Shown one piece after another: positions 41,682 to 57,987 of a stretch of DNA of 64,000 nucleotides. Each line of letters starts with the position of its first letter. Position 1 is the stretch's first letter. The position numbers were made by a program, and so were the translations under genes. Location: the NCBI GenBank assembly GCA_024275045.1, contig JAJRZX010000036.1, positions 19,615 through 83,614 of the forward strand, in the 5' to 3' direction. The notes beneath the pieces were generated by a model. It was given only the letters and a program-made list of their open reading frames with translations. It was not told the DNA's origin and did no database searches. This DNA is from Deltaproteobacteria bacterium. Its GTDB lineage: Bacteria; Desulfobacterota; GWC2-55-46; JADFVP01.

Positions 41682-41755
41682 TGGAGCGGGCGATGGGAAT
41701 CGAACCCACGTGTGCAGCTTGGGAAGCTGCCATTCTACCATTGAATCACGCCCGC
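41682..41755 (-). tRNA. tRNA-Gly (anticodon CCC) with encoded CCA
   Basis: The reverse complement folds as a cloverleaf: acceptor GCGGGCG/CGCCCGC, D-arm ATTC..GAAT, anticodon stem GCAGC/GCTGC with loop TTCCCAA, T-arm GTGGG-TTCGATT-CCCAT. Confidence 0.85.
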
Positions 41756-42034: not shown

Positions 42035-43087
42035 TTGAAGGTCCTTAAAAAAGTCTTACCCATTATTGCAATACTTGTCATCCTTGGCCTTGTATTTCTT
42101 TATCTTGGAAGGAGTAAAGACAGTGGCACGGCCAATGCCATGAGCGGCACCGGGACTATAGAGGCCACGGAAGTGGCCCTCTCGCCAAAGATAGCCGAGA
42201 CCATAGACTGGCTCTGCTGTAATGTAGGCGAGAGGGTTACCGCTAATCAGGTTGTGGCGCGTCTTGACAAGAGAGAGCTGGAGGCCCTTGCGGCAGAGGC
42301 CCATGCCACTGTTGCGGCCTCTGCCGTTGGCGTAAGAGAGGCCCGTGTGGCACTTGAGAGCAGGCGCGTGGCCGTAGAGACCGTGGGTTTTGAACTTGAG
42401 TCCGCACGCGCCGAGGTGGAGAGAGTAAGGTCTCTTGCCGCAGACGCAGAGAAGGAGTATAAACGCATCTCCGTTCTTGTAAAAAAAGGCTTTGTATCAA
42501 GCAGCGAGTTTGACAGCGCAAAGGCCGCGTATGAGTCTGCAGCGGCCTCTTTAAATTCGGCAGTCGCACGGGTAAAGGCAGAGGAGGCGCAGCTTAGAAG
42601 CGCCCGTGTGGCCGTAAAGAGTGCGGCAGCTGCCATTAGCGCGGCAGAGGCGGGGCGCGCCAAGGACGAGGCCACGGAGCAGGTCTTGCTGACAAGGCTC
42701 ACTTACGCCGTGCTTAAGAGCCCAATAAACGGAGTGGTTGCGTATAAGGCATTCGAGGCCGGTGAGATGAGTGTGCCCGGCAAGGCCATATATACCGTAT
42801 ATGACTTTCAGGATATGTGGGCAAGGGTGGATGTAGGGGAGACTGAGCTTGCGCGTGTAAGACTTGGTACCCGCGCGGAGGTAAGCGTGCCGGGTCTGCC
42901 CGATCGTGTCTTTAAGGGAGAGGTAAGCGAGATAGGGCAGATGGGAGAGTTTGCAACGCATAAAGACGTCATCAGGGTGAGCCACGATATTAAGACCTTC
43001 AGGATAAAGGTACGCCTCCTTGAGTCCAATGGTTTGTTAAAACCCGGCATGACGTGCAGGGTGAGGATTTTTTTTGGTGATAAGTAG
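42035..43087 (+). CDS. HlyD-family periplasmic adaptor (membrane fusion protein)
   Basis: An N-terminal TM segment, a long coiled coil and a beta-barrel domain. A TTG start is assumed. Confidence 0.75.
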   Translation: MKVLKKVLPIIAILVILGLVFLYLGRSKDSGTANAMSGTGTIEATEVALSPKIAETIDWLCCNVGERVTANQVVARLDKRELEALAAEAHATVAASAVGVREARVALESRRVAVETVGFELESARAEVERVRSLAADAEKEYKRISVLVKKGFVSSSEFDSAKAAYESAAASLNSAVARVKAEEAQLRSARVAVKSAAAAISAAEAGRAKDEATEQVLLTRLTYAVLKSPINGVVAYKAFEAGEMSVPGKAIYTVYDFQDMWARVDVGETELARVRLGTRAEVSVPGLPDRVFKGEVSEIGQMGEFATHKDVIRVSHDIKTFRIKVRLLESNGLLKPGMTCRVRIFFGDK

Positions 43088-43117
43088 AGCGGCTCTGCCT
43101 CTTAGTGGGGCTTTTAT

Positions 43118-44119
43118 ATGAGCCTTGCCATAGAGACGCGAAGTCTTAAAAGAGTGTATGGAAAGAAAACCGCCCTTGACGGCGTGGATTTATCCGTGCC
43201 AATGGGTGATTTTTTTGGCCTCTTAGGGCCTAACGGTGCAGGCAAGACCACGCTTATAAGGATACTCTCCACGCTTATTAAACCCTCAAGCGGCAGCGCC
43301 GCTGTAGCGGGTTTTGATGTAGTCAAGTCCTGTAATGACGTGCGCAGGCAGATAGGCGTGGTGCCTCAGGCCATGACCACGGATCTTGACCTTACGGCGC
43401 GTGAGGTCCTTGATATATACGCAAGGTTCTACGGTTTATCGGGTAAAAAAAGACGCGCGCGTATTGATGAGCTCCTTGAGCTCGTGGGGCTCACGCAGCG
43501 ATCCGCTGACCTTGTGGCTACTTTCTCAGGAGGCATGCGTCGCCGTCTTGAGATAGCCCGCGGTCTTGTTCATATGCCCACGCTCCTTATCCTTGACGAG
43601 CCCACTCTGGGCCTTGACCCTCAGACACGCCATGTTGTATGGGATATCCTCCGTAAATTCAGAGAGGAGTCCGGCCTTACCGTGCTCCTTACCACTCATT
43701 ACATGGAAGAGGCCGAGTCGCTCTGCGACCATGTGGCTATTATTGATAACGGCAATATCGTGGCCCTTGATACCGTAGCCGGGCTTAAGGCCATGATACC
43801 CAGTGAGGATGTTATTGAGTTAAGCCTCTCGGGTATAACTCCGGGTGAGGCAGAGTCCTGGATAACCTCCATAGAGATGGTGCATTCATGCACAGCGCGC
43901 GGAGACGACTTCGTAGTATCCGTGGCAGACGCCGTAAGTGTTCTGCCCGTGCTTCTCGAGGGCCTCAAGACCCGCGGGGCCACGGTATCGAGGATGGTGC
44001 TTAAAGAGCAGACCCTTGAGGATGTATTTATCCACTTTACGGGGCGTTCCATCAGGGAGGAAGGGGCAAAGAAGGTGAGCTTTTTTATCGGCGCAGGTGT
44101 TCCAAGAAAAATGTCATAA
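43118..44119 (+). CDS. ABC transporter ATP-binding protein (ABC-2/DrrA-like)
   Basis: Walker A GPNGAGKTT, the signature SGGMRRRL, and Walker B ILDEPT. Confidence 0.9.
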   Translation: MSLAIETRSLKRVYGKKTALDGVDLSVPMGDFFGLLGPNGAGKTTLIRILSTLIKPSSGSAAVAGFDVVKSCNDVRRQIGVVPQAMTTDLDLTAREVLDIYARFYGLSGKKRRARIDELLELVGLTQRSADLVATFSGGMRRRLEIARGLVHMPTLLILDEPTLGLDPQTRHVVWDILRKFREESGLTVLLTTHYMEEAESLCDHVAIIDNGNIVALDTVAGLKAMIPSEDVIELSLSGITPGEAESWITSIEMVHSCTARGDDFVVSVADAVSVLPVLLEGLKTRGATVSRMVLKEQTLEDVFIHFTGRSIREEGAKKVSFFIGAGVPRKMS

Positions 44120-44172
44120 GTCTAAACCTCTGTTCTTTATAAAAGCAGGGCAGGGGATTAAGAGGCCGTCTC

Positions 44173-45294
44173 ATGCATCGTATATACGCCTTAATAGAGA
44201 GAGATCTCAGGAAATTTATCCGCAACCCCTTTGTGGTTGGCGTATCCATAGCCATGCCCATAGTGTATCTCATTATCATGGGTTCGAGCTTTCAGGGAGA
44301 GCTGAAGAGTCTCTCCGTAGCAGTGGTGGATCAGGATAACGGCGAGTACGGGCGCAGTATCCTCAGTAACCTTCGCGCCGTGCAGCATGGCCCCGCCACT
44401 ATACGCGTTCTTACCGTAACAGACAAGTCCTCTGCCATGGAGGCCCTTGCCGACGGCACCTTCAAGGCCGTGCTTATCATCCCCCGTGATTTTTCAAAGA
44501 AGGTCATACGCGGCGAGACCGCTGATGTGGGGTTATTTCTTGATAACGTGGAGACTATATCCTCGGCTACCATTGAAAAAGCCGTAAGAGGGGCCGTGGG
44601 AGAGGTCTCCGTGGACTTTATTCCCGTTAGAGAGGGCCGTGGTCATGTCTTTGTACGGGCCATAAACACCTACGGCAAGATTGACTACGACCAGGGCCTT
44701 ATACCCGGCGTTGTGATTATGGCCATCTTCATAGGGGCCATGACAACAGGGGTCTTTAACGTGGTGATGGACAGATTTCTGGGTATTGACGAGAGTTATT
44801 TTCTAACCCCCTTATCCAAACTCGATATAGTCGTGGCCCTTGTTATAAGCGGGCTTATGGTCACTACCGTCCTTGCCGTTATCGTGCTCTTTTTAAGCAC
44901 ATTGACGGCAGGCATGTATCTCTGGGAGCTGCTGAGCCTTACGGGTTTTTTCTCTGTTCTTGCCGTATTCATCCTCTCGGCCTTATCGCTTCAGGGCTTG
45001 ATGTTCCTTGTCATGGGACGGGCCACTCACCCGAGGATTCTTGGCATTATGGGAGGGTTTCTTAACGTCATATTTTTCTTTCCAAGCGGGGCCATTTATC
45101 CGGTGGAGAGCTTTCCTCTGTGGCTGCAGTACTTTGCCGCCGTAAACCCCGAGACCTACTCCGTGCACGCCCTTAAGGCCGTAATATTCAAGGGCGCCGG
45201 GCTTGCCACCATTACCGGGGACCTGCTCTTTCTTGCTGGTTTTTCTTTTGTCGCCCTCACGGTAAGTATTATTTCATTTAAGCGAACGCTCTAA
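44173..45294 (+). CDS. ABC-2 type transporter permease
   Basis: Six TM segments and the ABC-2 membrane family pattern. It lies downstream of the ATPase. Confidence 0.8.
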   Translation: MHRIYALIERDLRKFIRNPFVVGVSIAMPIVYLIIMGSSFQGELKSLSVAVVDQDNGEYGRSILSNLRAVQHGPATIRVLTVTDKSSAMEALADGTFKAVLIIPRDFSKKVIRGETADVGLFLDNVETISSATIEKAVRGAVGEVSVDFIPVREGRGHVFVRAINTYGKIDYDQGLIPGVVIMAIFIGAMTTGVFNVVMDRFLGIDESYFLTPLSKLDIVVALVISGLMVTTVLAVIVLFLSTLTAGMYLWELLSLTGFFSVLAVFILSALSLQGLMFLVMGRATHPRILGIMGGFLNVIFFFPSGAIYPVESFPLWLQYFAAVNPETYSVHALKAVIFKGAGLATITGDLLFLAGFSFVALTVSIISFKRTL

Positions 45295-45420
45295 TGCGGC
45301 AGCATCTGAGAGAACCCTTCGGTATTTTTTACAGTAATAATTTTGAGAGGGCAAAGAAAAGTATACTCTGAGACAACGGTGCCTGAGGCGGTCTCTATTG
45401 AGATCTATTTAATAATAGTG

Positions 45421-45449
45421 TTGACAGGGTTATAAAAATATATTAGAGT
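45421..45449 (+). promoter_or_regulatory. Putative promoter (-35 TTGACA, 17 bp spacer, -10 TAGAGT) driving the S-box leader
   Basis: Sequence match about 25 nt upstream of riboswitch P1. Confidence 0.35.
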
Positions 45450-45473
45450 TATCAATACAATTGAATAATGGAT

Positions 45474-45632
45474 ATCTTATCCAGAGTGGCGGAGGGACTG
45501 GCCCGATGAAACCACAGCAACCGGTACCGTAAAAGGTATGACAGGTGCTAAATCCAGCAGAGACGGTTAAACGTCTCTGGAAGATAAGAAGAATTACTGG
45601 ACACTCTTCTTATTAAAGAAGGGTTTTTTTTT
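45474..45632 (+). ncRNA. SAM-I (S-box) riboswitch with intrinsic terminator
   Basis: P1 runs 5' ATCTTATCCAGAG to 3' CTCTGGAAGATAAGA. Conserved cores present are GGCGGAGGGACTGGCCCGATGAAACC, GCAACC and AGGTGCTAAATCCAGCAGAG. An 8-bp terminator stem with a T9 tract follows. The antiterminator is GATAAGAAG pairing with CTTCTTAT. Confidence 0.85.
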
Positions 45633-45733
45633 GCCCAAGACCGCTCTCTCAATGTGTGAACAGGGGGCGTGGATACAGGTGGTTTTGTAACTTTAAATAT
45701 TTAACGTAAAGTCATTCTACAGGAGATGTTTAT

Positions 45734-46987
45734 ATGAAGTACATGAAAGGATTAAAGTGCAGGGAGTGCGCAAAGACATATCCCCTGGACCCCATCCATG
45801 TCTGCGAGCTCTGTTTCGGCCCACTTGAGGTGGATTATGATTATGATAATATTGCCAAGGTGCTTACAAAAGACCTTATTACAGGCAGGGCGCCCAATAT
45901 GTGGAGATACAGAGAGCTTCTTCCCATAGACGCCGAGCCCTCGGTTGGCCTTAACTCGGGTTTTACGCCTCTTATACGGGCCTATAACCTCGGCGAGGCA
46001 CTTGGTGTAAAGGAGCTTTACATTAAGAACGACGCCGTGAACTTTCCCACGCTCTCCTTTAAGGACCGCGTGGTCTCCGTTGCCATTTCGCGTGCCATAG
46101 AGATGGGGTTTGACGTAATAGCCTGCGCCTCCACGGGCAACCTTGCCAACTCCGTTGCCGCAAATTCCGCTGCCTGCGGCCTTGACAGTTACGTCTTTGT
46201 GCCCTACGACCTTGAGCAGACCAAGATTACGGGCACCATTGTCTACGGCACCAACCTTGTTGGCATAAAAGGCACCTATGACGAGGTGAACAGGCTCTGC
46301 AGCGAGATAGGCGGTAAATACGGCTGGGCCTTTGTAAATATTAACATCAGGCCATTTTACGCAGAGGGTTCAAAGACCTTTGGTTACGAGATAGCCGAGC
46401 AGCTTGGGTGGAAGCTGCCGCAGCACGTTATCGTGCCAATGGCCGGGGGCTCTCTTATTACAAAGATATGGAAGGCATTTAAAGAGTTCAAGGCCCTGGG
46501 TTTTGTTGACAGCGCTCCTGCCAGGATATACGGAGCGCAGGCCACGGGCTGCGCCCCCATAGTAACTGCCGTAAAGGAAAAGAGCGAGCTTATACGTCCG
46601 GTAAAACCCGATACCATCGCAAAGTCTCTTGCTATCGGCAACCCCGCGGACGGCTTTTATTCAGCCCGTACCATTCGCGATAGCGGCGGCTGGGCAGAGG
46701 ACGTATCTGATGATGAGATAATCGAGGCAATGAAGCTCCTGGCCGAGACAGAGGGCATATTCGCCGAGACAGCAGGCGGCGTGACGGTAGGGGTGACAAA
46801 GAAACTCATTGAGCAGGGACGCATTGCCCGTGACGAGTCCATTGTTATCTCTGTTACGGGTAACGGCCTTAAGACTCAGGAGTGCCTTGCGGGCAAGATC
46901 TCAGAGCCTCCTGTAATAGAGGCGAAGCTGGCCGAGTTCGACGCACTTGTGGATGGCGGCAAGATGAAAAAAGCCGCTATCAAATAA
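45734..46987 (+). CDS. Threonine-synthase-family PLP enzyme with an N-terminal zinc ribbon. It may be a genuine threonine synthase or an O-phosphohomoserine-dependent homocysteine synthase (MetM-like).
   Basis: PLP lysine in the SFKDR context, a Trp-synthase-beta fold, and an N-terminal C-x2-C...C-x2-C. It sits directly behind the S-box. Confidence 0.75.
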   Translation: MKYMKGLKCRECAKTYPLDPIHVCELCFGPLEVDYDYDNIAKVLTKDLITGRAPNMWRYRELLPIDAEPSVGLNSGFTPLIRAYNLGEALGVKELYIKNDAVNFPTLSFKDRVVSVAISRAIEMGFDVIACASTGNLANSVAANSAACGLDSYVFVPYDLEQTKITGTIVYGTNLVGIKGTYDEVNRLCSEIGGKYGWAFVNINIRPFYAEGSKTFGYEIAEQLGWKLPQHVIVPMAGGSLITKIWKAFKEFKALGFVDSAPARIYGAQATGCAPIVTAVKEKSELIRPVKPDTIAKSLAIGNPADGFYSARTIRDSGGWAEDVSDDEIIEAMKLLAETEGIFAETAGGVTVGVTKKLIEQGRIARDESIVISVTGNGLKTQECLAGKISEPPVIEAKLAEFDALVDGGKMKKAAIK

Positions 46988-47207
46988 GACGGGCTCTTAA
47001 GCGGCGGCGGTAAAGTACAGCGGGGATTATTAAGTGAAGTCCTGAGGCGGCGGTTCTTTCTTGTCCTGTTATAGAGGGGCGAAGTTCTCTTTTACCGCTG
47101 CTTTTGTTGTAATCAAAGGCCCTACTCTGTTATAATAAAAAAATTAACCTCATAATGCTACTTCTTCCCCTTTAAGTACGAGGGGCTTATTCAAGGAGGC
47201 CACTTAG

Positions 47208-48194
47208 ATGACGGACCATTACATAGAGGATAAGACTAACAGGGTTGACCTTGACCTTGAGAAACTCAAAGGAAAGGTTAACTTCAATGACCTTAAATCC
47301 GGGGGGTTTATAAAGCAGAAGCAGAAAGACCTCTTTACCGTGAGGCTGCGCTGTCCGGGCGGCATGATGACCACGGATAAGCTTATTGAGATTTCAAAGC
47401 TTGCCAAAAAATACAGCAAAGAAGGCATGGTGCATTTCAGCTACCGTCAATCCTTTGAGATACTCTATGTGGATTACAGGGACTTTCACGCACTGGTTTC
47501 GGAGCTTGAGGCGCTGGGGCAGAAGGTTGCCTCTTGCGGCCCCCGTGTCAGGGTGCCTACTGCCTGCGGTGGATGCGAGTACAACCCCAACGGACTTATA
47601 GACGCGCAGGCCATGGCCCGTATGGTGGACAAAGAATTCTTCGGCACAAATACGCCCCATAAGTTCAAGACCTCTTTCTCGGGCTGTCCCATTGATTGCT
47701 CAAGAACCGTTGAGATGGACCTTGGTTTTCAGGGCGTTGTAGACCCCGAGTGGGTGCAGGACCTCTGCACGGGCTGCACCATCTGCTCTGAAGCATGTAA
47801 GGAAGGCGCCATTGAGGCCCATCCCGATACAGGTGAACCAATATTCGATGTTAATAAATGCCTCTACTGCGCTGACTGCATTCGCGCCTGCCCAACAGAG
47901 GCTTGGAAGCCCAGGCGTCACGGATTTATCGTACGCATAGGCGGTAAACACGGCCGTCACCCCCTCGAGGGCGTTGAGGTATGCCGCTTTCTCCCTGAAG
48001 ACAAGGTAAGTCATGCCATTGATATGACCGTAAAGTGGTACAAGGCAAACGGCAAGAGTTTCGAGAGGATAGGAAGCACGCTTCAGAGGCTTGGCATGGA
48101 TAGTTATGTTAAGCACATGGCCCCGGTATTTGGAGACATGGCCGTGGTTCCAGAGCATCCGCCTACTGACAGGCCCCTTATAGACCAGGGCTGA
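47208..48194 (+). CDS. Small dissimilatory-type sulfite-reductase-like protein (Dsr-LP/alSir-like) with an inserted 2x[4Fe-4S] ferredoxin domain
   Basis: Putative siroheme/Fe-S Cys cluster ...TACGGCEY...SGCPIDC, followed by two ferredoxin motifs CTGCTICSEAC and CLYCADCIRACP. 328 aa. Confidence 0.55.
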   Translation: MTDHYIEDKTNRVDLDLEKLKGKVNFNDLKSGGFIKQKQKDLFTVRLRCPGGMMTTDKLIEISKLAKKYSKEGMVHFSYRQSFEILYVDYRDFHALVSELEALGQKVASCGPRVRVPTACGGCEYNPNGLIDAQAMARMVDKEFFGTNTPHKFKTSFSGCPIDCSRTVEMDLGFQGVVDPEWVQDLCTGCTICSEACKEGAIEAHPDTGEPIFDVNKCLYCADCIRACPTEAWKPRRHGFIVRIGGKHGRHPLEGVEVCRFLPEDKVSHAIDMTVKWYKANGKSFERIGSTLQRLGMDSYVKHMAPVFGDMAVVPEHPPTDRPLIDQG

Positions 48195-48359
48195 TATTAG
48201 TAGGGGCCGGTCTGGTAAAGACAGCTTATAAGCAGGTGGTACTTAAGAGAAACGTTAAAAGAATCAAGAGCGCCAAGACCGCGGTCGGCTTTATGTACCG
48301 CTTAGCGAGATGATATAACCTCCCTCAGGGATAACGATTAAGAAGAGCAGTGATAAAAG

Positions 48360-48605
48360 GTGGATATGGACGATATAACGGCAAAAGAGAGCATTGATCT
48401 ACGGGGCGTAATGTGCCCCACCAACTTTGTAAAGACAAAGCTTAAGCTTGAGGCCATGGACCCCGGGGATATTCTTGAGGTGGTTCTTGATGCAGGCGAA
48501 CCCATTGCCAACGTGCCAAAGAGCGTCAAGGAAGAGGGACATAAGATTGTCAAGGTAATTAAAGACGACGGCTCATTCAGGATTATGATAGAAGTCTCTG
48601 AGTAG
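48360..48605 (+). CDS. TusA/SirA-like sulfurtransferase (two-layered alpha/beta sandwich)
   Basis: 81 aa with the conserved Cys in LRGVMCPTNFVKTK (TusA CPxP-like position) and a DILEVV-type pattern. Confidence 0.55.
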   Translation: MDMDDITAKESIDLRGVMCPTNFVKTKLKLEAMDPGDILEVVLDAGEPIANVPKSVKEEGHKIVKVIKDDGSFRIMIEVSE

Positions 48606-48634
48606 CCTGTAATTCAACTTTTAAGGAGGCCGAA

Positions 48635-48919
48635 ATGCCAGTAAAGGTAAGGATACCAACACCGCTCAGAAAGATAACAAAGGACAACGATGAGGTTCTG
48701 GCCGAGGGGACTACTGTTACCGAGGTTATAGAGGACCTTGAGAAGAACTACCCCGGCCTCAAAGAGAGGATCTGCGAGGACGACGGCAACCTCCGCCGTT
48801 TTGTAAATCTTTATCTCAATGACGAGGACATACGTTTTAAGGATAACCTCAATACCAGCGTCTCTGATAATGACGAGTTATCCATTATCCCGGCCATAGC
48901 CGGCGGAGGTGCGGGTTGA
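48635..48919 (+). CDS. ThiS/MoaD-family sulfur-carrier protein with the C-terminal extension ...AGGG-AG
   Basis: 94 aa with a beta-grasp pattern. A Gly-Gly is followed by two extra residues (AG) before the stop. The stop overlaps the TTG start of the next gene (GTTGA). Confidence 0.6.
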   Translation: MPVKVRIPTPLRKITKDNDEVLAEGTTVTEVIEDLEKNYPGLKERICEDDGNLRRFVNLYLNDEDIRFKDNLNTSVSDNDELSIIPAIAGGGAG

Positions 48920-49152
48920 AAAAAAAGGTCTATCTTACTTATCCCTCCGATAAGGTTAAGGAGCCTCTTCTTTGCCTGTGTTCGCGCAAATTCAAGGTCT
49001 TAACCAATATCAGGCAGGCTTCTGTAACGGATAAGATTGGAATAGTTGCCCTTGAGCTTGAGGGCGAGGCCTCTGAGATAGAGAAGGCCATGGACTTTTT
49101 TACGGAAAACGGTGTAATGGTCGAGCCTATTGAGATGGATATTATAGTTTAG
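48916..49152 (+). CDS. NIL-domain (MetN C-terminal-like, ACT-fold) small protein
   Basis: 78 aa. RKFKVLTNIRQASVTDKIGIVALELEGE...GVMVEPI parallels E. coli MetN C2 ([30 protein letters not shown]...VKVEVLGYV). It is translationally coupled to the carrier gene. Confidence 0.5.
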   Translation: MKKKVYLTYPSDKVKEPLLCLCSRKFKVLTNIRQASVTDKIGIVALELEGEASEIEKAMDFFTENGVMVEPIEMDIIV

Positions 49153-49178
49153 CTCCGTTCTGGTCTGTATGTTTTCTG

Positions 49179-49230
49179 CCCGCTCTTGAGACCATCTGAA
49201 CACATGGCCGAGAGCGGGTATTTTGTATTC
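49179..49230 (+). terminator. Putative terminator after the NIL gene (stem CCCGCTCT...AGAGCGGG followed by TATTTTGTATT)
   Basis: An 8-bp GC-rich stem with a large loop and a U-rich tail. A promoter-like TTGACA follows at 49271. Confidence 0.35.
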
Positions 49231-49402
49231 ATCAGCCTTCTTTTTTCCCGTAAATTCGCTGAAATTATTCTTGACAAATGCGGTAGGGTATTATAAATTT
49301 ATATACTTGATATTTTTACTAAGGTAATAGAAATACCTTATAAAAAAAGGGGTTTTACATGGACTCTCTATTATTGGTCCAATACCGCGGAAGAGGTCTT
49401 GA

Positions 49403-50362
49403 ATGAGAAAAAACAATACACTGGAGAGTTTTGAGGCAGAGAAAGGACCCTCGGCAGGCAAGGCACGGTTCTCGGCCCTTGAGCTTGTTGGTAATACGCC
49501 TCTTGTGAGGATAAACAGGATTACAAAAGACCTGCCGAGCGGTGTTGAGGTATACGCCAAGCTTGAGTCCGCCAACCACGGCGGCTCTGTAAAAGACAGA
49601 CCCGCGCTGCGCATGATTGAAGACGCGGAGAAGAGCGGGCGGCTTACAAAGGAAAAGATAATACTGGACTCCACATCAGGCAACACGGGCATTGCCTATG
49701 CCTGGATAGGCGCCGTAAAGCAACACCGCGTGGAGCTTGTGGTGCCGGAGAACGTAAGCTCAGAGCGAAAAAAGATACTTGACGCATTTGGGGCGAGGGT
49801 GATTTTCTCAAGCCCTTTTGAGGGCTCTGACGGGGCCATACGCCTTGCGTGGAAGCTATACGTGGCTAACCCCGAAAAGTACTGCAAGCTTGACCAGTAC
49901 AACAACCCCTCAAACCCCCTGGCCCATTACTACGGCACAGGGCTTGAGATTATAGAGCAGACAGGCGGGGCCATTACCCACTTTGTCACTACCATCGGCA
50001 CAGGGGGAACCATAATGGGCACCATGCGCAGGCTAAAGGAATTTAACAGCAATATTCAGGTCATCGCTGTAGAGCCTGATAACCCCATGCACGGCCTTGA
50101 GGGTCTTAAACACATGGCCTCATCAATAGTGCCGGGCATATATCACGAGGACTCTCTTGACGGCAAGGTCCCTGCCTCAACAGAGGAGTCTTATGAGATG
50201 ACCAAGAGGCTCGCGAGAGAAGAGGGGCTTCTTGTGGGCCAGTCTTCAGGGGCGGCCATGCTTGGAGCCCTTAAGGTGGCAAGCGGCCTTACCGAGGGAG
50301 TGGTGGTAACCATCTTTCCCGATGGCGGAGACAAATACCTCTCCACACGTCTCTGGGAGTAG
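49403..50362 (+). CDS. Cysteine synthase (CysK/CysM family; possibly thiocarboxylate-dependent, CysM-like)
   Basis: PLP lysine in the SVKDR context, and GNTGIA, GTGGT motifs. 319 aa. Confidence 0.85.
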   Translation: MRKNNTLESFEAEKGPSAGKARFSALELVGNTPLVRINRITKDLPSGVEVYAKLESANHGGSVKDRPALRMIEDAEKSGRLTKEKIILDSTSGNTGIAYAWIGAVKQHRVELVVPENVSSERKKILDAFGARVIFSSPFEGSDGAIRLAWKLYVANPEKYCKLDQYNNPSNPLAHYYGTGLEIIEQTGGAITHFVTTIGTGGTIMGTMRRLKEFNSNIQVIAVEPDNPMHGLEGLKHMASSIVPGIYHEDSLDGKVPASTEESYEMTKRLAREEGLLVGQSSGAAMLGALKVASGLTEGVVVTIFPDGGDKYLSTRLWE

Positions 50363-50695
50363 GGTACATAGGGCGGCAGGGGGGACGTGCGCAGGGGCAA
50401 GTGGGTGCCGGGGTGAGATAACCGGGGTAGTGCGGAGTTTATATGTAGTGGTGCTTTGGGTCCAATAGGAAGTAAGTACCCCATGACGCACGATTTAATT
50501 GTTTTCATTACGTATTGATTTACAAGACCTTCTTAACTTTAAAATTTAAAATCTGAGATTTTTTTAAAGGGCCTTTGCGAGACCCTTTTAGAGTTTTTGC
50601 AGGTAAGAGCATTTTTTTCTACAGACAGATACGCGTAAGAAGAATATGGGGGCAAAGAGCCCTCTTAACTTAAAAATAAACTTAAGGGGTAAGTC

Positions 50696-51163
50696 ATGGG
50701 TCTGCTCTCAAAGTTCAGGAAAAAAGAAAAATTGTATGTTCCAAAGGAATTTTATGACGATATGATTGAGCACGCCAAGCTGGAGTATCCGCATGAGTGC
50801 TGCGGCGTTCTTATAGGCAACTCCATGATGGGGGACAGGAAGATATTTCACACCGAGAGGTGCACTAACCTCAATAAAGAGCGCGCCCATGACAGGTATC
50901 TCATGGACCCCAGAGAGATAAACCTCGCTGATAAGGGTGCACGCGCGCAGTCCCTTGAGATTATGGGGTTTTACCACTCGCACCCGGATCATCCCGACAG
51001 GCCCTCGGAGTACGACCGTGAGGTGGCCCACCCCGGGTACTCGTACATAATACTCTCGGTAAAGGACGGCAAAGAGGTTACGGCAAAGTCCTGGACATTT
51101 GCCGAGCTTGATGAGCCCTTTGTGGAAGAGGCCATTGAGGTAACAGTATCAAAGTGGAAGTAA
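50696..51163 (+). CDS. JAMM/MPN+ zinc metalloprotease (Mec+/HcyD/QbsD-like)
   Basis: The complete JAMM motif E...HSH-x7-S-x2-D (HECCG ... HSHPDHPDRPSEYD). Confidence 0.75.
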   Translation: MGLLSKFRKKEKLYVPKEFYDDMIEHAKLEYPHECCGVLIGNSMMGDRKIFHTERCTNLNKERAHDRYLMDPREINLADKGARAQSLEIMGFYHSHPDHPDRPSEYDREVAHPGYSYIILSVKDGKEVTAKSWTFAELDEPFVEEAIEVTVSKWK

Positions 51164-51286
51164 GAGTTTCTTTTAAGGTATAAATAAAGGTTGTATTTAT
51201 CTTATCATAAAGCTTTTTTGCGGTAGGGTTACATCTATAACCGTGAAATAACTTTTTCTCTTTTTTTTAAGGGGGTAGTTCATAAG

Positions 51287-52096
51287 ATGGACTTTACAGA
51301 TGAGCAGATAGAGCGTTACTCAAGACACATTATACTGCCCGAGGTAGGGGGAAAAGGTCAGACAAAACTCCTTGAGTCCAAGGTCTTTGTCCTTGGAGCA
51401 GGAGGGCTTGGCTCACCGGCGCTTCTGTACCTTGCAGCCGCGGGTGTTGGCACAATAGGCATCGCAGACGGCGATGTGGTGGATGTAAGTAACCTGCAGC
51501 GTCAGATAATCCATGACAACAATACAGTGGGCATGGCAAAGGTGGAGAGCGCTCGTAAATCCATCGAGGCCCTTAACCCCGATGTGGTGGTTAATACCTT
51601 TAACAGCCGTCTTGGTATAGAGAATATCCGCGAGGTGCTCCGTGACTACGATGTTGTGCTTGACGGCTCTGATAACTTTCCAACGCGTTACCTTATGAAC
51701 GACGCCTCCTTTTTTGAGGGCAAGACCCTTATCTCGGGCAGCATGTTCAGGTTTGACGGACAGGTCTCTGTCTTTAAGCCGGCTGATGGGTACCCCTGCT
51801 ACAGGTGCCTCTATCCCGAGCCGCCGCCAAAGGGCATGGTACCGTCCTGTCAGGAGGCCGGTGTGCTTGGCGCTCTTGCCGGTGTTATCGGTGTGCTGCA
51901 GGCTGTTGAGGCAATTAAAGAGATACTCTCCATAGGCAAGGTCCTTGCAGGAGAGCTCTTGATATTTGACGCCCTTGGTATGAGCTTTCGTAAAGTCAAG
52001 GTGCGGCGCGACCCTGATTGCGCGCTCTGCGGCGAAAATGCCACTATAAAGGAACTCTCGCTCTATGAGCAGGCACCCTGTGAGCTGCGTACCTGA
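51287..52096 (+). CDS. ThiF/MoeB-family E1-like adenylyltransferase (no rhodanese domain)
   Basis: Nucleotide loop GAGGLGSP, an RQ motif, and Zn-binding C-x2-C...C-x2-C (PCYRC, DCALCG). Confidence 0.85.
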   Translation: MDFTDEQIERYSRHIILPEVGGKGQTKLLESKVFVLGAGGLGSPALLYLAAAGVGTIGIADGDVVDVSNLQRQIIHDNNTVGMAKVESARKSIEALNPDVVVNTFNSRLGIENIREVLRDYDVVLDGSDNFPTRYLMNDASFFEGKTLISGSMFRFDGQVSVFKPADGYPCYRCLYPEPPPKGMVPSCQEAGVLGALAGVIGVLQAVEAIKEILSIGKVLAGELLIFDALGMSFRKVKVRRDPDCALCGENATIKELSLYEQAPCELRT

Positions 52097-52235
52097 TACG
52101 TTCTGACGGGTCTTTTCCGGTGATAGAAAAGAGGCGTAAAGAGGTCTTACTTTAAAGGCAGGTCATCTTGCCTCTTAAGGTAAACCCTTAACTCCGCTGA
52201 GGGGAGCCGCACCTGCAAGAGGCAGTTGAACTGTT

Positions 52236-53462
52236 GTGATAAGAAAAAATTACTTTAAGAACCCCGGTGCGTTGAAGATAGACCTTATGCTGAGGGGGGC
52301 GGCCATTGAAGACCCTGTTGCCAAGGCGCGGGCCTGCGGGGCCACCGGCATAGACATACTCCTGCCTAAAAAAATACTTGTAAACATACCCTGCGAAGAC
52401 TGGTTTACCGTGCGCTCGCCTTACGTGATTAAAAAATCCGCCGGTAAAAAGGGGTATATCCTTACCAACGGCAGTGACAGCGTACCTGTAAGCATACTTG
52501 ATAGACCGGAGTTTTACAGCCGCAAGACCGCTACCGGGGTGCCTTTTGGTGATATTGCCGTAACGCACGGCAGTTACACCGTTATAACGCCTGATAAGAG
52601 GTGCGGTTTTTTTAAATCCAGCGCCCAGTGCAGGTACTGCGCCGGGAACTTCAGCACCGATGCCGCTGAGAATGGCGGACGCGTCTATACCGTAGAAGAG
52701 GTCCTTGAGACAGTTAAGGCCGTGCTCAAGGAAAAGGCGTCAGGCATAATATACCTCTCCATAGGTTTTAGCGATGGCGATGACGGGGGCATTAAGTTTC
52801 TCGAACCCTATGTAAAGGCGATTAAGTCCCATTTTAACTGCCTTGTCGCGGTAGAGGCCCTGCCCCCTGCCAGTAACGAGTGGATAGACAGGGCATACGC
52901 CTTTGGCGTTGACTCAATACTTTATAATCTGGATATCTTTGATAAGGAGCTTTTTTCTGTAATATGCCCGGGCAGGGCCGGCCTTATAGGAAGACAGCGT
53001 ACTCTTGATGCCCTTAAATACGCCGCTGGTATCTTTGCAAACGGCACAGTGGCCTCGCACCTCATAGTTGGCCTTGAACCCCCGGGCTCTACGATTATGG
53101 GCATTGATTTTCTTACGGACTCAGGTGTTGTGCCTATACTGCCCATATTCCGCCCCTCAAAGGACAGGCCCCTTGATGTGACGGACCTTGATGCAGAGGT
53201 GATAATACCGGTGTACCGGCACCTGTACAAGACGCTTAAGAAAAAAGGCATCAACTTCAACTGGGTCCGTGATATAAGCATGGTTACTACCCCTGTTGAG
53301 GGCAGATATCTTTTAAATGACGAGAAGAGCTCATCGCCGTTTCTTGATAATTTTTACGAGTCCAGGCTTGGCATGAAAACAGCCTGGGGGCTAAGCGCAA
53401 TCAGAAGACGGCTAAGGGTTAAAAAAATTAAAAAAGAGGACCCCCCCGAGGGTTCTCCGTAG
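52236..53462 (+). CDS. Hypothetical protein with a C-x9-C-x2-C cysteine cluster followed by a TIM-barrel-like region. Possibly a non-canonical radical-SAM/Fe-S enzyme.
   Basis: 408 aa containing CGFFKSSAQCRYCAGNF. No canonical C-x3-C-x2-C is present. Glycine-rich (GGG-like) segments follow. Confidence 0.35.
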   Translation: MIRKNYFKNPGALKIDLMLRGAAIEDPVAKARACGATGIDILLPKKILVNIPCEDWFTVRSPYVIKKSAGKKGYILTNGSDSVPVSILDRPEFYSRKTATGVPFGDIAVTHGSYTVITPDKRCGFFKSSAQCRYCAGNFSTDAAENGGRVYTVEEVLETVKAVLKEKASGIIYLSIGFSDGDDGGIKFLEPYVKAIKSHFNCLVAVEALPPASNEWIDRAYAFGVDSILYNLDIFDKELFSVICPGRAGLIGRQRTLDALKYAAGIFANGTVASHLIVGLEPPGSTIMGIDFLTDSGVVPILPIFRPSKDRPLDVTDLDAEVIIPVYRHLYKTLKKKGINFNWVRDISMVTTPVEGRYLLNDEKSSSPFLDNFYESRLGMKTAWGLSAIRRRLRVKKIKKEDPPEGSP

Positions 53463-53480
53463 CAGCAGTGGAGTTGTCCC

Positions 53481-54905
53481 GTGAGAGTAGAGATTGACAG
53501 AAGACCGATATGGGTAATTCTCGCCGGCAAGGCGCTGAGACCTGTTTTCTTTCTCTTGCTTGCACTGGGGTTTATCCTCTTTCTTCAGCTTCCCGTGCCT
53601 GAGGGCCTTGGGACAGGGGGGATGAGGGCAATAGCTGTTTTTTTGCTATGCCTCGTGCTCTGGGTCTCAAACGCAGTGCCCGTGGCTATTACCGGGCTCT
53701 TTGCCATAGTGCTTGTCCCGCTCCTCGGGGTGCTGCCGCGCGGGGCCACGTACTCGCTATTTGGCAATGAGGCAGTGTTTTTTATACTGGGGGCCTTTAT
53801 ACTCTCAGGCGCGGTCATGCAGTCAGGGCTCTCGAACAGAGTGGCCCTGCGCCTCATGGAGAAGCACGGCGGGTCTCCGAAACGCCTTATAATAAGCATT
53901 TTTTTGCTTGCAGCGGCCCTCTCGTTTGTTATGAGCGAGCATGCCGTTGCGGCCATGCTCTTTCCCATTGTGCTTGAGATATCAAAGAGTCTGAAACTCA
54001 GGCCCGGCGAGTCCAATTACGGAAAGCTCCTCTTCTTCGCCCTTGCCTGGGGTTCTGTCATAGGCGGGGTTGGGACTTTTCTTGGCGGAGCGCGTGTGCC
54101 GCTGGCAATGGGAATACTCAAAGAAACAACGGGCTCTACCATAGGTTTTTTGGATTATACCGTGGCCGTGGCGCCCCTTGTGGTGGTCCTCTTAATCGTG
54201 GGGTATATCGTGCTGACGAGGTTTTTTCCCGTTGATATCGATGGTGTGGAGAACGCCCACAAGGTAATCGTGAGGCGCGCGCGGGCCCTTGGAAAGGTAC
54301 GCCCAAGAGAGTACGCCGTTGGTTTAATACTTGGCATTACCATATTGCTCTGGATAACAATCGGCAAGACCGTAGGGCTTGCCGCCATTGCCATGTTATC
54401 TGTTATGGCCCTATTTGTCCTTAAACTCGTAAAATGGCGCGAGATTGAGGAGTACGTGAACTGGGGCATAATACTCATGTACGGCGGCGCCATTATACTC
54501 GGCACTGCCCTTGACAGGAGCGGCGCCGCAAAGTGGATGGTAGACGCCATTATGACGCAGTGGGCTCAGACGCCCATAACGGTTATAGCCCTCTTCTCGC
54601 TCCTGGCAATACTGCTAACAGAGTCCATGAGCAACGCCGCGGTTATCGCTGTTCTGCTGCCCGTGAGCATTGGCATGGCGGGCCGTACCAATATGAGCCC
54701 CGAGGTCCTTACCTATGTGGTGGCCATTCCCGCGGGGCTGGCCTTTATGCTGCCCATGAGTACCCCGGCTAACGCCATTGCCGTATCAAGCGATTACATA
54801 TCGGTTCGTGATATGGCAAAGGGCGGGGTGATAATGTTTTTAACCTCCTGGGTTACATTTAACCTCATGGCGCACTTTTATTGGCCCCTCATAGGGCTGA
54901 GATAG
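53481..54905 (+). CDS. DASS/SLC13-family (ArsB/NhaD-fold) anion transporter, plausibly a sulfate permease
   Basis: 474 aa with about 12-14 TM helices and an internal-repeat architecture typical of CitT/SLC13. It sits in the sulfate-assimilation context. Confidence 0.7.
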   Translation: MRVEIDRRPIWVILAGKALRPVFFLLLALGFILFLQLPVPEGLGTGGMRAIAVFLLCLVLWVSNAVPVAITGLFAIVLVPLLGVLPRGATYSLFGNEAVFFILGAFILSGAVMQSGLSNRVALRLMEKHGGSPKRLIISIFLLAAALSFVMSEHAVAAMLFPIVLEISKSLKLRPGESNYGKLLFFALAWGSVIGGVGTFLGGARVPLAMGILKETTGSTIGFLDYTVAVAPLVVVLLIVGYIVLTRFFPVDIDGVENAHKVIVRRARALGKVRPREYAVGLILGITILLWITIGKTVGLAAIAMLSVMALFVLKLVKWREIEEYVNWGIILMYGGAIILGTALDRSGAAKWMVDAIMTQWAQTPITVIALFSLLAILLTESMSNAAVIAVLLPVSIGMAGRTNMSPEVLTYVVAIPAGLAFMLPMSTPANAIAVSSDYISVRDMAKGGVIMFLTSWVTFNLMAHFYWPLIGLR

Positions 54906-54988
54906 GTCTGTACTTTAAATAGGCGGGTTTATGCAAAATAATGGTAATAAACCCGCCATTTTGGTTTACGAACTCATTTAATTAGGTT

Positions 54989-55459
54989 ATGATGACCAAT
55001 ACTAAGATACTGCTTGTTTTATCCACTCATGTGTACTCTGATAAGGCCATTGAGTACGCCGTCAGGCGGGCCAGGGAGGAAGAGAGGCAGCTTGTAGCTT
55101 TTTTTCTTCTTGAGTCTGAGCTTGCCGAGGAGGCGTCTGAGAGGTTCTCGGACATTGGTTTTACAGGCGACAGGCCCTCGGCCACATTATCTGAGTCTCT
55201 TATGCGCGAGTACCGGCAGAGGGGGTATGAGGCCCTTGGCAGGGCGCAGATAAAGGCCATGGAGGATGGTGTGGACTTTGAGCCTCTGTTAAAAGAGGGG
55301 CCTTATGTATCTACCATACTTGAGGTAATAAGGGCACACGGTATAGGTCTTACCGTTATACAGAGGCGAAAGGAGAGGTCCTTTCTGCATTACTTTAAAA
55401 AAGGTTTATCCGTAAAGGTTAAAGAGGCGGCTTCATGCGAGGTCGTTATCATCGAGTAA
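54989..55459 (+). CDS. UspA-like alpha/beta domain protein (ATP-motif-less)
   Basis: 156 aa with weak USP-like periodicity. No glycine-rich ATP loop. Confidence 0.3.
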   Translation: MMTNTKILLVLSTHVYSDKAIEYAVRRAREEERQLVAFFLLESELAEEASERFSDIGFTGDRPSATLSESLMREYRQRGYEALGRAQIKAMEDGVDFEPLLKEGPYVSTILEVIRAHGIGLTVIQRRKERSFLHYFKKGLSVKVKEAASCEVVIIE

Positions 55460-55486
55460 ATACAAGCTGAATAAAGGGAGGTAGAG

Positions 55487-56191
55487 ATGGCAGGAAAGCA
55501 GTGGAGTGAAGAAGAACTTAAGGCAGTATCCGATGAGCTTGAAGATAAGGGACCCCAGGCCGCCATTCAATGGGCTGTGGATAATTTCGATACACAGGAC
55601 TTATCTCTTGCCTGTAGTTTCGGCGCCGAGGACGTTGCTCTTGTGGATATGCTTGTGAAGATAAAACCTGATGCAAGGATTTTTTATCTTGATACAAATA
55701 AGCTCTTCAAGGAGACCATTGATGTAATGGAGCGCCTTAAAGAGAGGTACAATATTAACCCTGAGAAGTATACCTCAAAGATGAGCCTTGCCGAGCAGGC
55801 CGCCGAGTTCGGCGATGAGCTCTGGGCAAAGGATCCGAAGAAGTGCTGCGACATAAGAAAGATAACACCTCTTAAAGAAGCTCTCTCAGGGCTTAGTGCC
55901 TGGATTACCGGTATAAGAAGGGATCAGGCACCGGCAAGGGCCAACGCCCCTGTAGTTGGCTGGGACGCCATGTTCAACCTTGTGAAGATAAACCCGCTGG
56001 TAAAGTGGACGAGCGAGGATGTGTGGGATTATATCCGCGCCAATAACGTGCCTTACAATGAGCTTCATGACAAGAATTACCCCTCAATAGGCTGTGAGCC
56101 ATGCACCAATGAGGTGAAGCCAGGCGAGGACCCAAGGGCCGGAAGATGGGCCGGATTTAAGAAGACAGAGTGCGGACTTCACGACAAGTAA
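55487..56191 (+). CDS. cysH: Assimilatory adenylyl-sulfate (APS) reductase, Fe-S type (CysH family)
   Basis: The PAPS_reduct fold plus a Cys-Cys pair (KKCCDIRK) and C-x2-C (GCEPCT) for the [4Fe-4S] cluster. The C-terminal ECGLH carries the catalytic Cys. Confidence 0.85.
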   Translation: MAGKQWSEEELKAVSDELEDKGPQAAIQWAVDNFDTQDLSLACSFGAEDVALVDMLVKIKPDARIFYLDTNKLFKETIDVMERLKERYNINPEKYTSKMSLAEQAAEFGDELWAKDPKKCCDIRKITPLKEALSGLSAWITGIRRDQAPARANAPVVGWDAMFNLVKINPLVKWTSEDVWDYIRANNVPYNELHDKNYPSIGCEPCTNEVKPGEDPRAGRWAGFKKTECGLHDK

Positions 56192-56284
56192 TCGTAAGAA
56201 CGCCTGTGAGGTAATTGCGGAAGCATAGTGATTAATATAACTTTATCTCTTGCAACTAAACAGTCTTAGGGAGGATTTTCAAAG

Positions 56285-57448
56285 GTGGATACATTAATCG
56301 CCCCTCATGGCGGGGTGCTTATAAACAGGGTCGTAGAGGGTAAGGCCCGTCTTGATCTGGAAAAAGCCTCGATAAATATGAACACCCTTGTTCTTAATGA
56401 GAGGGAGATCTCAGACCTTGAGATGATAGCAACAGGCGGTTTCAGCCCTCTTGCCGGTTTTATGTGTCACGATGATTATCACTCTGTGATGGATACCATG
56501 ACGCTCACTAATGGTCTGCCCTGGACCATACCTGTTACTCTCTCTGCCACAGAGGCAGAGGCGGCTGAGCTGAGAGAGGGTACGGACGTGGCCCTTAATA
56601 ACGAGAACGGCGAGCTTCTGGCCATCCTTCATCTTGAGCAGATATTCAAGCACGACCCTGAGAAAGAGGCCCTTCGCGTTTACGGAACCCCTGATGAGGC
56701 ACACCCAGGTGTGAAAAACGTCTATGCAATGGGCTCCCAACTCCTTGGCGGCAAGATATCTCTGCTTGAGCGTACCGAGTATGACCAGTTTAACGAGTAC
56801 CGCAGAGACCCCATTGAGACAAGGCAGCTCTTTAAGAAGAACGGCTGGCGCCGCGTTGTGGGTTTTCAGACCAGAAACCCCATACACAGGGCCCATGAGT
56901 ACATTCAAAAATGCGCGCTTGAGACAGTTGACGGTCTGATGATACATCCTCTTGTAGGCGAGACAAAGTCCGATGATATACCCGCGGATGTGCGTATGAA
57001 CTGCTACGAGACGCTTATGGCCAAGTACTATCCAGCCGACAGGGTGGTGCTCTCCGTATATCCCGCGGCCATGCGCTACGCAGGGCCCCGCGAGGCTGTC
57101 TTTCACGCACTTATACGCAAGAACTACGGATGCACCCACTTTATCGTTGGCAGAGACCATGCTGGCGTAGGCGGCTACTACGGAACCTTTGACGCTCATC
57201 TTATATTTAACAAGTTTGAGCCCGAGGCCATAGGCATAGCCCCCATGTTCTTTGATTATACCTTTCACTGCAAGAGTTGCGGCGGCATGGCCTCGTACAA
57301 GACATGCCCCCATGATTCGTCTGAGCACATTACCTTATCAGGCACAAAGGTGCGGGAGATGCTGAGGGCCGGCACGTGTCCGCCGCCCGAGTTCTCAAGG
57401 CCCGAGGTTGCAGAGGTCCTTATTAAGGCCATGAAATCCGGCGCATAA
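56285..57448 (+). CDS. sat: Sulfate adenylyltransferase (ATP sulfurylase)
   Basis: QTRN...H motif ([13 protein letters not shown]), a PUA-like N-domain and GRDHAG. A GTG start is assumed. Confidence 0.9.
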
Positions 57449-57608
57449 GGGAGTTCATGCCGTGGTACCCGGCAGCTCCCCCGTGGGGCTGCCAGTGGTA
57501 TTGCACAAGCTGAGAGAATACCTGCAGGCAAGCGGTGCCGAGAGGCAAATAAAGTGATTGCCTGCTCCGTTACCGGCAGTTCAGCGAGCACAATTCAATA
57601 TATGTGAG

Positions 57609-57643
57609 AGGAGGGGGGTGATTAGCCCCCTTCCTTTTTTTTT
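57609..57643 (+). terminator. Rho-independent terminator downstream of sat
   Basis: A G/C stem (GGAGGGGGG...GCCCCCTTCC) followed by T9. Confidence 0.6.
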
Positions 57644-57987
57644 ACCCTTTTAAACTCATCCCTGGGGTTTTTTTGTGGATTTTCTCTCTCATCTATTACC
57701 CTCAGATGAGCCGCTCCCGCGTAAAAACCTTCTTTTTTCTTTAACTTATTGTTTTCCTCTTAATTTTGCTGTTAATATTACTCTTATGTTATATGATAAG
57801 TTATATTTGTTCTTCTATCTGAAGGCGGAACCTTATTTATATGGTTTTAAGGCTCTATGGGACCTCATGGGAAGAGGGGGGGAAGCAGGCAGGCAGAGAA
57901 TTTTTGTATATGATTCAGAGAGAGCAGAGGGGGGCATATGGCGGCAGTGCGCTCACATTTTTATAAGTCAGGGGCATATTATCTCTT

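Follow-up and report, generated by a model that had tools for sequence, protein, structure and literature searches.

A SAM-I riboswitch ahead of a putative MetM-type homocysteine synthase gene in a thirteen-gene sulfur cluster from Thermodesulfobacteriota

We analyzed a stretch of 64,000 nucleotides (here called the window) from contig JAJRZX010000036.1 of a Thermodesulfobacteriota metagenome-assembled genome (MAG; assembly GCA_024275045.1), in which a SAM-I (S-box) riboswitch, the class that responds to S-adenosylmethionine (SAM), lies ahead of a gene for a ThrC-family enzyme dependent on pyridoxal phosphate (PLP), the first gene of a sulfur cluster. This enzyme is probably a MetM-type homocysteine synthase that takes its sulfur from a carrier thiocarboxylate and whose synthesis is controlled by SAM-I attenuation; we infer its substrate, its product and its use of a carrier. 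Most likely the locus belongs to the pathway published in 2024 in Streptomyces, SAM riboswitch included, and occurs here in a different phylum. MetM of Streptomyces albulus is a ThrC homolog that converts O-phosphohomoserine and MetO-thiocarboxylate to homocysteine, with Mec and MoeZ as partners, as summarized from Hasebe et al. 2024 by GapMind 2026 (10.1101/2024.10.14.618325), a source that also describes the protein as “often misannotated” under the name threonine synthase. A SAM riboswitch lies upstream of S. albulus metM according to the account in PMC12172450, which cites Hasebe 2024.

The SAM-I leader and its occurrence in related loci

The leader is made up of the following elements.

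45421 to 45449, + strand: sigma-70-like promoter, TTGACA-17-TAGAGT, which fits the consensus at 10 of 12 positions and ends 25 nt before the aptamer; called by consensus match only
45474 to 45590, + strand: SAM-I (S-box) aptamer with helices P1 to P4; RF00162, 85.6 bits, and 119 bits with the covariance model built here
45583 to 45614, + strand: predicted antiterminator, GAUAAGAAGA (45583-45592) paired with UCUUCUUAUU (45605-45614), -8.8 kcal/mol
45603 to 45632, + strand: predicted intrinsic terminator, a 9-bp hairpin (45603-45624) and a T9 tract (45624-45632), -9.2 kcal/mol

The original prediction, made by eye from the letters of the sequence, had recognized an S-box in this leader, and the Rfam scan bore it out: the SAM-I model (RF00162) aligned to 45474-45590 on the + strand over model positions 1-108 with an E value of 7.5e-19 and a score almost double the gathering score of 44.4 bits. 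All of the S-box core strings that had been quoted are in the sequence, and the proposed P1 helix is present as 8 bp in the Rfam alignment, pairing AUCUUAUC (45474-45481) with GAUAAGAA (45583-45590); the CUCUG that had been joined to P1 belongs to the 3' arm of P4. This was the sole riboswitch match of the Rfam scan across the 64-kb window, and when 45000-58000 was searched for further regulatory RNAs with a permissive E value, no credible RNA family besides SAM-I came up. The unconstrained minimum free energy fold of the leader did not reproduce the aptamer, as expected for a ligand-stabilized junction, and the leader structure was taken instead from the covariance-model alignment together with local folds. 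Both the terminator with its T9 tract and the antiterminator, which had likewise been foreseen, were recovered in this way. In the computed folds the antiterminator takes one strand from P1 (the 3' one) and the other from the terminator (the 5' one), and it is mutually exclusive with both helices.

The expression platform, as computed, is of the classic S-box transcription attenuation design, with P1 in predicted competition with the antiterminator, and the leader is, on its alignment and folds, a genuine SAM-I riboswitch that is predicted to sense SAM and to switch off the ThrC-like gene. When SAM is bound, P1 would form and the terminator at 45603-45632 would halt transcription; at low SAM, the antiterminator would form in its place, from P1's 3' strand and the terminator's 5' arm, and RNA polymerase would read on into the open reading frame at 45734-46987, ahead of which lies an AGGAG Shine-Dalgarno sequence at 45721-45725.

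A ThrC-family gene had been regarded in the original prediction as an unusual S-box target, a view that has to be given up because SAM-I lies directly upstream of the ThrC-like gene in 41 of 80 named loci and because the arrangement is already published for S. albulus metM. These loci are the best 80 named ones from a profile-guided scan that took one genome per species; their ThrC-like proteins are 55-78% identical to the query (the ThrC-like protein of the window), none is from Streptomyces, and they span Thermodesulfobacteriota, Nitrospinota, Nitrospirota, Verrucomicrobiota, Planctomycetota, Acidobacteriota, Chloroflexota, Cyanobacteria, Aquificaceae and others. Among 11 loci spread across the phylogeny, Rfam placed SAM-I ahead of the gene in 5 and detected no other riboswitch class in the remaining 6. 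A covariance model built from eight of the SAM-I leaders was then run on the loci; among those with more than 350 nt of upstream sequence, the proportion with SAM-I was 40 of 75. A hairpin with a run of at least 5 U residues is present in 26 of 44 orthologous SAM-I leaders. In an alignment of these 44 leaders that was fitted to the model itself, 95.5% of base-pair cells were paired, compared with about 42% when partners were slid (0 of 500 shuffles reached as high a value), and compensatory changes were seen in 23 of 33 pairs.

Actinomycete loci are built along the same lines. In Micromonospora coriariae, a SAM-I element of 69.2 bits ends 11 nt before the ThrC-like gene. In Nonomuraea gerenzanensis, at a locus found by tblastn against plasmids, SAM-I (68.7 bits) is followed by a ThrC-like gene (product 55% identical to the query) and, 24 nt later, by a carrier gene whose 91-aa product ends in ...PAVAGG and is 48% identical to the window carrier, a layout that equals the one reported for S. 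albulus metM-metO (PMC12172450). SAM-I is found ahead of the ThrC-like gene in all four close relatives of the window locus as well, and the cyanobacterial loci (57-58% identical to the query) have the adjacent carrier, with no riboswitch found in them. Overall, SAM-I before a ThrC-like gene is a conserved and common arrangement, and the module of SAM-I, ThrC-like and ThiS-like genes is widespread, well beyond Streptomyces and cyanobacteria.

The ThrC-like enzyme and its sulfur carrier

Three features concern the enzyme and the carrier.

45734 to 46987, + strand: ThrC-family PLP enzyme, 417 aa, putative MetM-type homocysteine synthase (Pfam and NCBIfam profiles, motifs and tree)
45758 to 45814, + strand: codons of an N-terminal Cys4 zinc ribbon, C9-x2-C12...C24-x2-C27 (from the translation; NinF-type ribbon match over residues 8-32)
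48635 to 48919, + strand: ThiS/MoaD/CysO-like sulfur carrier, 94 aa, ending in ...PAIAGG-GAG (ThiS, 67 bits)

The product of 45734-46987 has the PALP fold (PF00291, 231 bits) of fold-type II PLP enzymes, and its Schiff-base lysine, K110 in SFKDRV, aligns with K61 of Thermus thermophilus ThrC, the numbering of which was confirmed in that K61 falls in SFKDRG. Its closest homologs are from Thermodesulfobacteriota or “Deltaproteobacteria” MAGs and, where the sources give a name, are called “threonine synthase.” The nearest solved relatives are the threonine synthases of Aquifex aeolicus, T. thermophilus, Bacillus subtilis and Mycobacterium tuberculosis (E values of 1e-60 to 1e-49), then that of Arabidopsis thaliana; a sequence search found no closer solved structure and none for any member of the ThrC-like clade. 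These five enzymes (T. thermophilus 1UIM, A. aeolicus 2ZSJ, B. subtilis 6CGQ, M. tuberculosis 2D1F and A. thaliana 1E5X) served as the characterized ThrC set, and motifs were read from an alignment of the query, the loci, 50%-identity representatives from an exhaustive search and this set.

Common to the five characterized ThrCs are KDRG (KDLG in A. thaliana), STGNT(S/A)A (STGDT in A. thaliana), VNSVNPxR(I/L)EGQK and PVGNAGN. In the query, in each of the 80 loci and in the orthologs from actinomycetes, the corresponding motifs are KDRV, STGNLAN, VN(I/V)N(I/L/M/V)RP(F/Y)YxEG(S/A)K, which holds a one-residue insertion relative to the characterized ThrCs, and PxA(G/S)GSL. These four motifs provide a simple signature that separates the clade from real threonine synthases. 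A clade of the query, all loci and Micromonospora left out all five characterized ThrCs in 100/100 neighbor-joining bootstraps, and the query is 35-39% identical to the four bacterial ThrCs and 29% to A. thaliana ThrC, compared with 50-91% inside the clade. The original prediction had looked to a phylogeny and to the threonine-specific residues to tell the enzyme from a canonical ThrC; it falls outside that group, and those residues are replaced at four active-site motifs. It had also remarked that the N-terminal Cys4 ribbon is not universal in ThrC. The ribbon is indeed missing from all five solved ThrCs, and C9, C12, C24 and C27 are invariant in 11 diverse relatives; as a marker of MetM it was nevertheless rejected, since P0245 and P0251, which have the full canonical ThrC signature, also carry CxxC...CxxC. 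The query has in common with canonical ThrC a PLP scaffold of fold type II, the SFKDR motif with its Schiff-base lysine and, presumably, O-phosphohomoserine as substrate, and it differs in its four replaced motifs, its separate clade, its Cys4 ribbon, its link to a sulfur carrier and its predicted repression by SAM.

The neighbors of 84 loci were probed with the window's own proteins. A ThiS-like gene lies directly downstream on the same strand in 73 of the 84, starting about 1.2-1.4 kb after the start of the ThrC-like gene; E1, CysM and JAB genes are nearby in 29, 25 and 17 of them, respectively. The window has a single carrier gene in its 64 kb. The best solved relative of its product is M. 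tuberculosis CysO (3dwg_C, E value of 2e-22), in an alignment that stops at G90-G91. Across loci, 42 carriers end exactly in GG and 23 have 1-6 extra residues, as does the window carrier (GAG, 48908-48919), and this three-residue tail after the GG would imply processing by a JAB protease. Not every extended carrier has a JAB gene close by. Tandem ThiS-like carriers follow the ThrC-like gene in three Verrucomicrobiota loci, L041 (4440-5041), L042 (7272-7871) and L043 (7247-7813), the only multi-carrier loci of the 84. The original prediction had sulfur-carrier genes immediately downstream of the ThrC-like gene in the window; they are on the same strand, and the carrier gene itself stands behind those for a sulfite-reductase-like protein and TusA.

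The clade, the motifs, the carrier linkage in the surveyed loci and the presence of JAB and E1 genes in the cluster all speak for the MetM-type function that had been proposed for this enzyme. Several points weigh on the other side. Any mechanistic reading of the four-motif substitutions is tentative: in T. thermophilus ThrC, T88, N154, S155 and R160 bind the phosphate group of the substrate, the group that directs the addition of water when threonine is made, and GNAGN holds the PLP phosphate. The ThrC-like protein passes both NCBIfam equivalog cut-offs for threonine synthase (TIGR00260, 290.4 bits with a cut-off of 167.1; NF006050, 312.7 bits with a cut-off of 303). For a Microcystis member of the clade, threonine synthase activity with Michaelis-Menten kinetics was measured in vitro, as was threonine deaminase activity, and no methionine rise was seen for it in vivo (PMC12172450). 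About 11 of the 84 loci, Micromonospora included, are without an adjacent carrier, and the window carrier lies 1.6 kb past the ThrC-like gene, beyond two genes and a 220-nt gap with a promoter-like site. Finally, the likeness to S. albulus MetM is indirect, running through actinomycete proxies and reported identities, and the nearest proxy is the 55% identical Nonomuraea protein.

The profile scores, the name that databases give the family and the in vitro activities from Microcystis would all suit a true threonine synthase, possibly moonlighting as a threonine deaminase, that sits in a sulfur cluster by chance and whose riboswitch balances the threonine and methionine branches. We think this quite unlikely. 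Repression by SAM would starve the cell of threonine when methionine is plentiful. Such repression fits an enzyme of the methionine branch and is the opposite of what is known for plant threonine synthase, which SAM activates. The bootstrapped separation from characterized ThrCs, with four active-site motifs altered, and the carrier alongside the gene in most loci also argue against a true threonine synthase, and the NCBIfam models evidently do not separate MetM from ThrC. In cyanobacteria the gene is a paralog, since these organisms also keep a canonical thrC2 (PMC12172450), and the Microcystis study supplied Na2S, not a carrier thiocarboxylate (PMC12172450). The Microcystis homolog is 51.6% identical to MetM and has an adjoining metO-like gene and no riboswitch (PMC12172450).

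Published assignments for the clade are in conflict, moonlighting threonine synthase/deaminase in Microcystis (PMC12172450) versus MetM in Streptomyces (GapMind 2026), and both the motif signature and the carrier linkage apply to the lineages of both assignments; the cluster described here could help to settle the disagreement. If the enzyme is of MetM type, the “threonine synthase” naming means that a methionine route would go unseen in automated reconstructions, which would also count too many threonine synthases.

Also unlikely, in our judgment, is direct use of free sulfide by the enzyme, acting as an O-phosphohomoserine sulfhydrylase, in which case the carrier, E1 and JAB proteins would serve only the neighboring CysM. 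This would accord with the next gene downstream in the window, which is sulfite-reductase-like and would be a source of sulfide, with the position of the window carrier, nearer to cysM than to the ThrC-like gene, and with the loci that have no adjacent carrier. It is harder to reconcile with the fact that, in most loci, the ThrC-like gene is directly followed by the carrier and has no CysM nearby (ThiS in 73 of 84 loci versus CysM in 25 of 84), including those of cyanobacteria and Nonomuraea, and with the description of characterized MetM as dependent on MetO-thiocarboxylate in the summary given by GapMind 2026. The ThrC family includes cysteate synthase, and the query has a weak match to the cysteate synthase model TIGR03844, so that another ThrC-family reaction (cysteate-synthase-like or phosphoserine-based) with a sulfur product other than homocysteine was considered. 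We regard it as highly improbable: the TIGR03844 score is 69.8 bits with a cut-off of 324.9, control by SAM-I points to the methionine/SAM branch, and among the members of the clade are homologs from actinomycetes and cyanobacteria that published work connects with MetM (PMC12172450).

The thirteen-gene cluster and the proposed route to homocysteine

The MetM-type gene, as we read it, is the first of 13 genes, all on the + strand, that occupy 45734-57448. The remaining features, apart from the carrier gene listed above, are as follows.

47208 to 48194, + strand: small sulfite/nitrite-reductase-like protein, 328 aa (NIR_SIR, NIR_SIR_ferr and Fer4), with an inserted 2x[4Fe-4S] ferredoxin domain
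48360 to 48605, + strand: TusA-family sulfurtransferase, 81 aa (PF01206, 75.8 bits)
48916 to 49152, + strand: stand-alone NIL-domain protein, 78 aa (PF09383, 49.7 bits); its start overlaps the carrier stop codon by 4 nt
49403 to 50362, + strand: CysM-like cysteine synthase, 319 aa (TIGR01138, 367.6 bits, slightly below the cut-off of 394.2)
50696 to 51163, + strand: JAB/JAMM metalloprotease, 155 aa, with a putative Mec/HcyD-type role (Prok-JAB, 89 bits)
51287 to 52096, + strand: ThiF/MoeB-type E1 adenylyltransferase, 269 aa (PF00899, 264 bits)
52236 to 53462, + strand: variant radical-SAM protein, 408 aa, related to the MSMEG_0568 family (NF045502, 169.7 bits)
53481 to 54905, + strand: DASS-family anion symporter, 474 aa (TIGR00785, 260 bits; Na_sulph_symp)
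54989 to 55459, + strand: Usp-like protein, 156 aa (Pfam Usp in orthologous genes; without an NCBIfam match)
55487 to 56191, + strand: CysH, adenosine 5'-phosphosulfate/3'-phosphoadenosine 5'-phosphosulfate reductase (NF002537, 282 bits)
56285 to 57448, + strand: Sat, sulfate adenylyltransferase (NF003166, 570 bits)
57606 to 57638, + strand: strong intrinsic terminator closing the cluster, 14-bp stem with 7 GC pairs and a T-run (terminator scan)

Relatives with ThrC-like proteins 91% and 77% identical to the query have all 13 genes as well, in unchanged order and with unrelated genes upstream. The terminator at 57606-57638 is the only strong intrinsic one for the same-strand cluster, and promoter-like sites lie within the cluster at 47107-47136, in the 220-nt gap, and at 49271-49299, in a gap of 250 nt. 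Because these gaps hold promoter-like sites, the cysteine and sulfate-assimilation genes are not to be assumed to be under SAM control. A search of the window for a second ThrC paralog and for classical methionine or threonine genes found none, the remainder being housekeeping genes (alaS, recA, mreBCD, proS, obg and proBA).

Taken as a whole, the cluster looks to be an unusually complete set for making cysteine and homocysteine from sulfate, apparently by way of a single carrier. The DASS symporter, which is likely to be a sulfur-oxyanion importer, Sat, CysH and the sulfite-reductase-like protein, which scores under the cut-off of every NCBIfam equivalog, would together form a sulfate route to sulfide. 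The E1 protein is without the C-terminal rhodanese domain of the MoeZ type (its matches to MoeB NF006444 and MoeZ NF005902 span the adenylation domain only), and because of this we propose that TusA possibly relays sulfur and may supply it in place of that domain. The E1 enzyme (51287-52096) would adenylate the carrier, which sulfide would turn into a thiocarboxylate, and the JAB protease would trim the three residues that follow the carrier GG. The MetM-type enzyme would then eliminate phosphate from O-phospho-L-homoserine and add the carrier thiocarboxylate at C-gamma (gamma-replacement), and after an acyl shift, JAB hydrolysis of the carrier adduct would free homocysteine, the precursor of methionine and SAM. 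The same carrier probably serves the CysM-like enzyme, for which O-phosphoserine and O-acetylserine are the candidate substrates, in making cysteine, so that one carrier may feed both syntheses.

Several known systems come close to the cluster. Like S. albulus MetM/MetO, the window has a ThrC-homologous PLP enzyme, labeled threonine synthase, behind a SAM riboswitch, a ThiS-like carrier with GG encoded in the cluster, and JAB (Mec) and E1 (MoeZ) partners. It differs in that the host is a Thermodesulfobacteriota MAG, the carrier gene is not adjacent, the carrier has a three-residue tail after GG and the E1 has no rhodanese domain; in addition, the cluster holds sulfite-reductase-like, TusA, NIL, CysM, radical SAM, DASS, CysH and Sat genes. 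The CysO/CysM/Mec/MoeZ system of M. tuberculosis is matched by the joint presence in the window of a CysO-like carrier, a CysM-like enzyme (E. coli CysM 2v03 at 1e-67; M. tuberculosis CysM 3dki at 6e-59), a JAB protein and an E1, and the window differs from that system in also holding a ThrC-like enzyme with a single carrier. In Wolinella succinogenes, a ThiS-like thiocarboxylate reportedly delivers the sulfur of homocysteine in a system of HcyS, HcyD, HcyF and MetY, for which PMC5764234 cites Krishnamoorthy and Begley 2011; a C-terminal extension of the carrier is said to be trimmed by a JAB-type protease, with a sulfite reductase encoded nearby. Condensation in that organism falls to MetY, which is an O-acetylhomoserine sulfhydrylase of fold type I, in place of an enzyme that has the ThrC fold and acts on O-phosphohomoserine. 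With its 13 genes, the cluster would be a good system for reconstitution of the whole pathway.

Two observations on gene content concern lineages near the window. The sulfite-reductase-like gene (7 of 84 loci) and the TusA gene (10 of 84) stand between the ThrC-like gene and the carrier gene in a few close lineages only. The variant radical-SAM gene, which lies between the E1 and DASS genes, is also found in the cluster of L001-L004, L006 and L009; its product has no obvious role in a thiocarboxylate pathway.

The NIL-domain protein, carrier fusions and flanking genes

A NIL gene follows the carrier gene in 44 of the 84 loci, and in six loci, L006 (7275-7790), L020 (7276-7791), L007, L008, L009 and L019, the two are fused in frame. 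These ThiS-NIL fusions are 171-175 aa long, with ThiS at residues 5-91 and NIL at residues 98-163, so that the GG is internal, and a JAB protease gene is nearby in 6 of 6. The sole solved relatives of the window's NIL protein are the C2 regulatory domains of the methionine importer MetN, in weak matches (E values of 0.07-0.47). MetN C2 domains bind methionine. The window protein has two cysteines, C20 and C22, neither of which is in the L006 fusion, the one sequence with which it was compared, by eye.

The association of NIL with the carrier is strong and hints at a third, so far undescribed component of the MetM/carrier pathway in the NIL protein, an assignment that we hold only tentatively and think doubtful as matters stand. 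It could be a methionine-sensing cap or adaptor, which either keeps the carrier inactive until JAB cleavage or gates its delivery to MetM or CysM; if so, sensing by NIL would add protein-level feedback to the SAM riboswitch. The one feature of the system that is possibly new is the coupling, or fusion, of a NIL-domain protein with the carrier. There is a parallel in the DUF39/NIL-ferredoxin/COG2122 pathway of methanogens and Desulfovibrio (PMC5764234), where homocysteine formation in anaerobes likewise has a genetic link to a NIL protein. There the starting compound is aspartate semialdehyde, NIL is fused to ferredoxin, and neither a ThrC-like enzyme nor a ThiS carrier takes part (PMC5764234), whereas in the system of the window NIL stands alone or is fused to the carrier.

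A fusion of another kind was seen at L023 (7235-8302), from an uncultured Actinomycetota MAG, where carrier and E1 are joined in frame in a protein of 355 aa, with ThiS at residues 4-90 and ThiF at residues 100-335. Exposure of the carrier GG in this ThiS-ThiF fusion would need proteolysis.

Directly upstream of the riboswitch, and on the same strand, are genes for an HlyD-like protein, an ABC ATPase and an ABC-2 permease (42035-45294). They are probably unrelated to the sulfur cluster, because relatives have different upstream neighbors. A tRNA gene at 41685-41755 on the - strand (Rfam, 66.4 bits; CCC in the anticodon loop), probably for tRNA-Gly, lies between an aldehyde dehydrogenase gene and the HlyD/ABC-2 genes.

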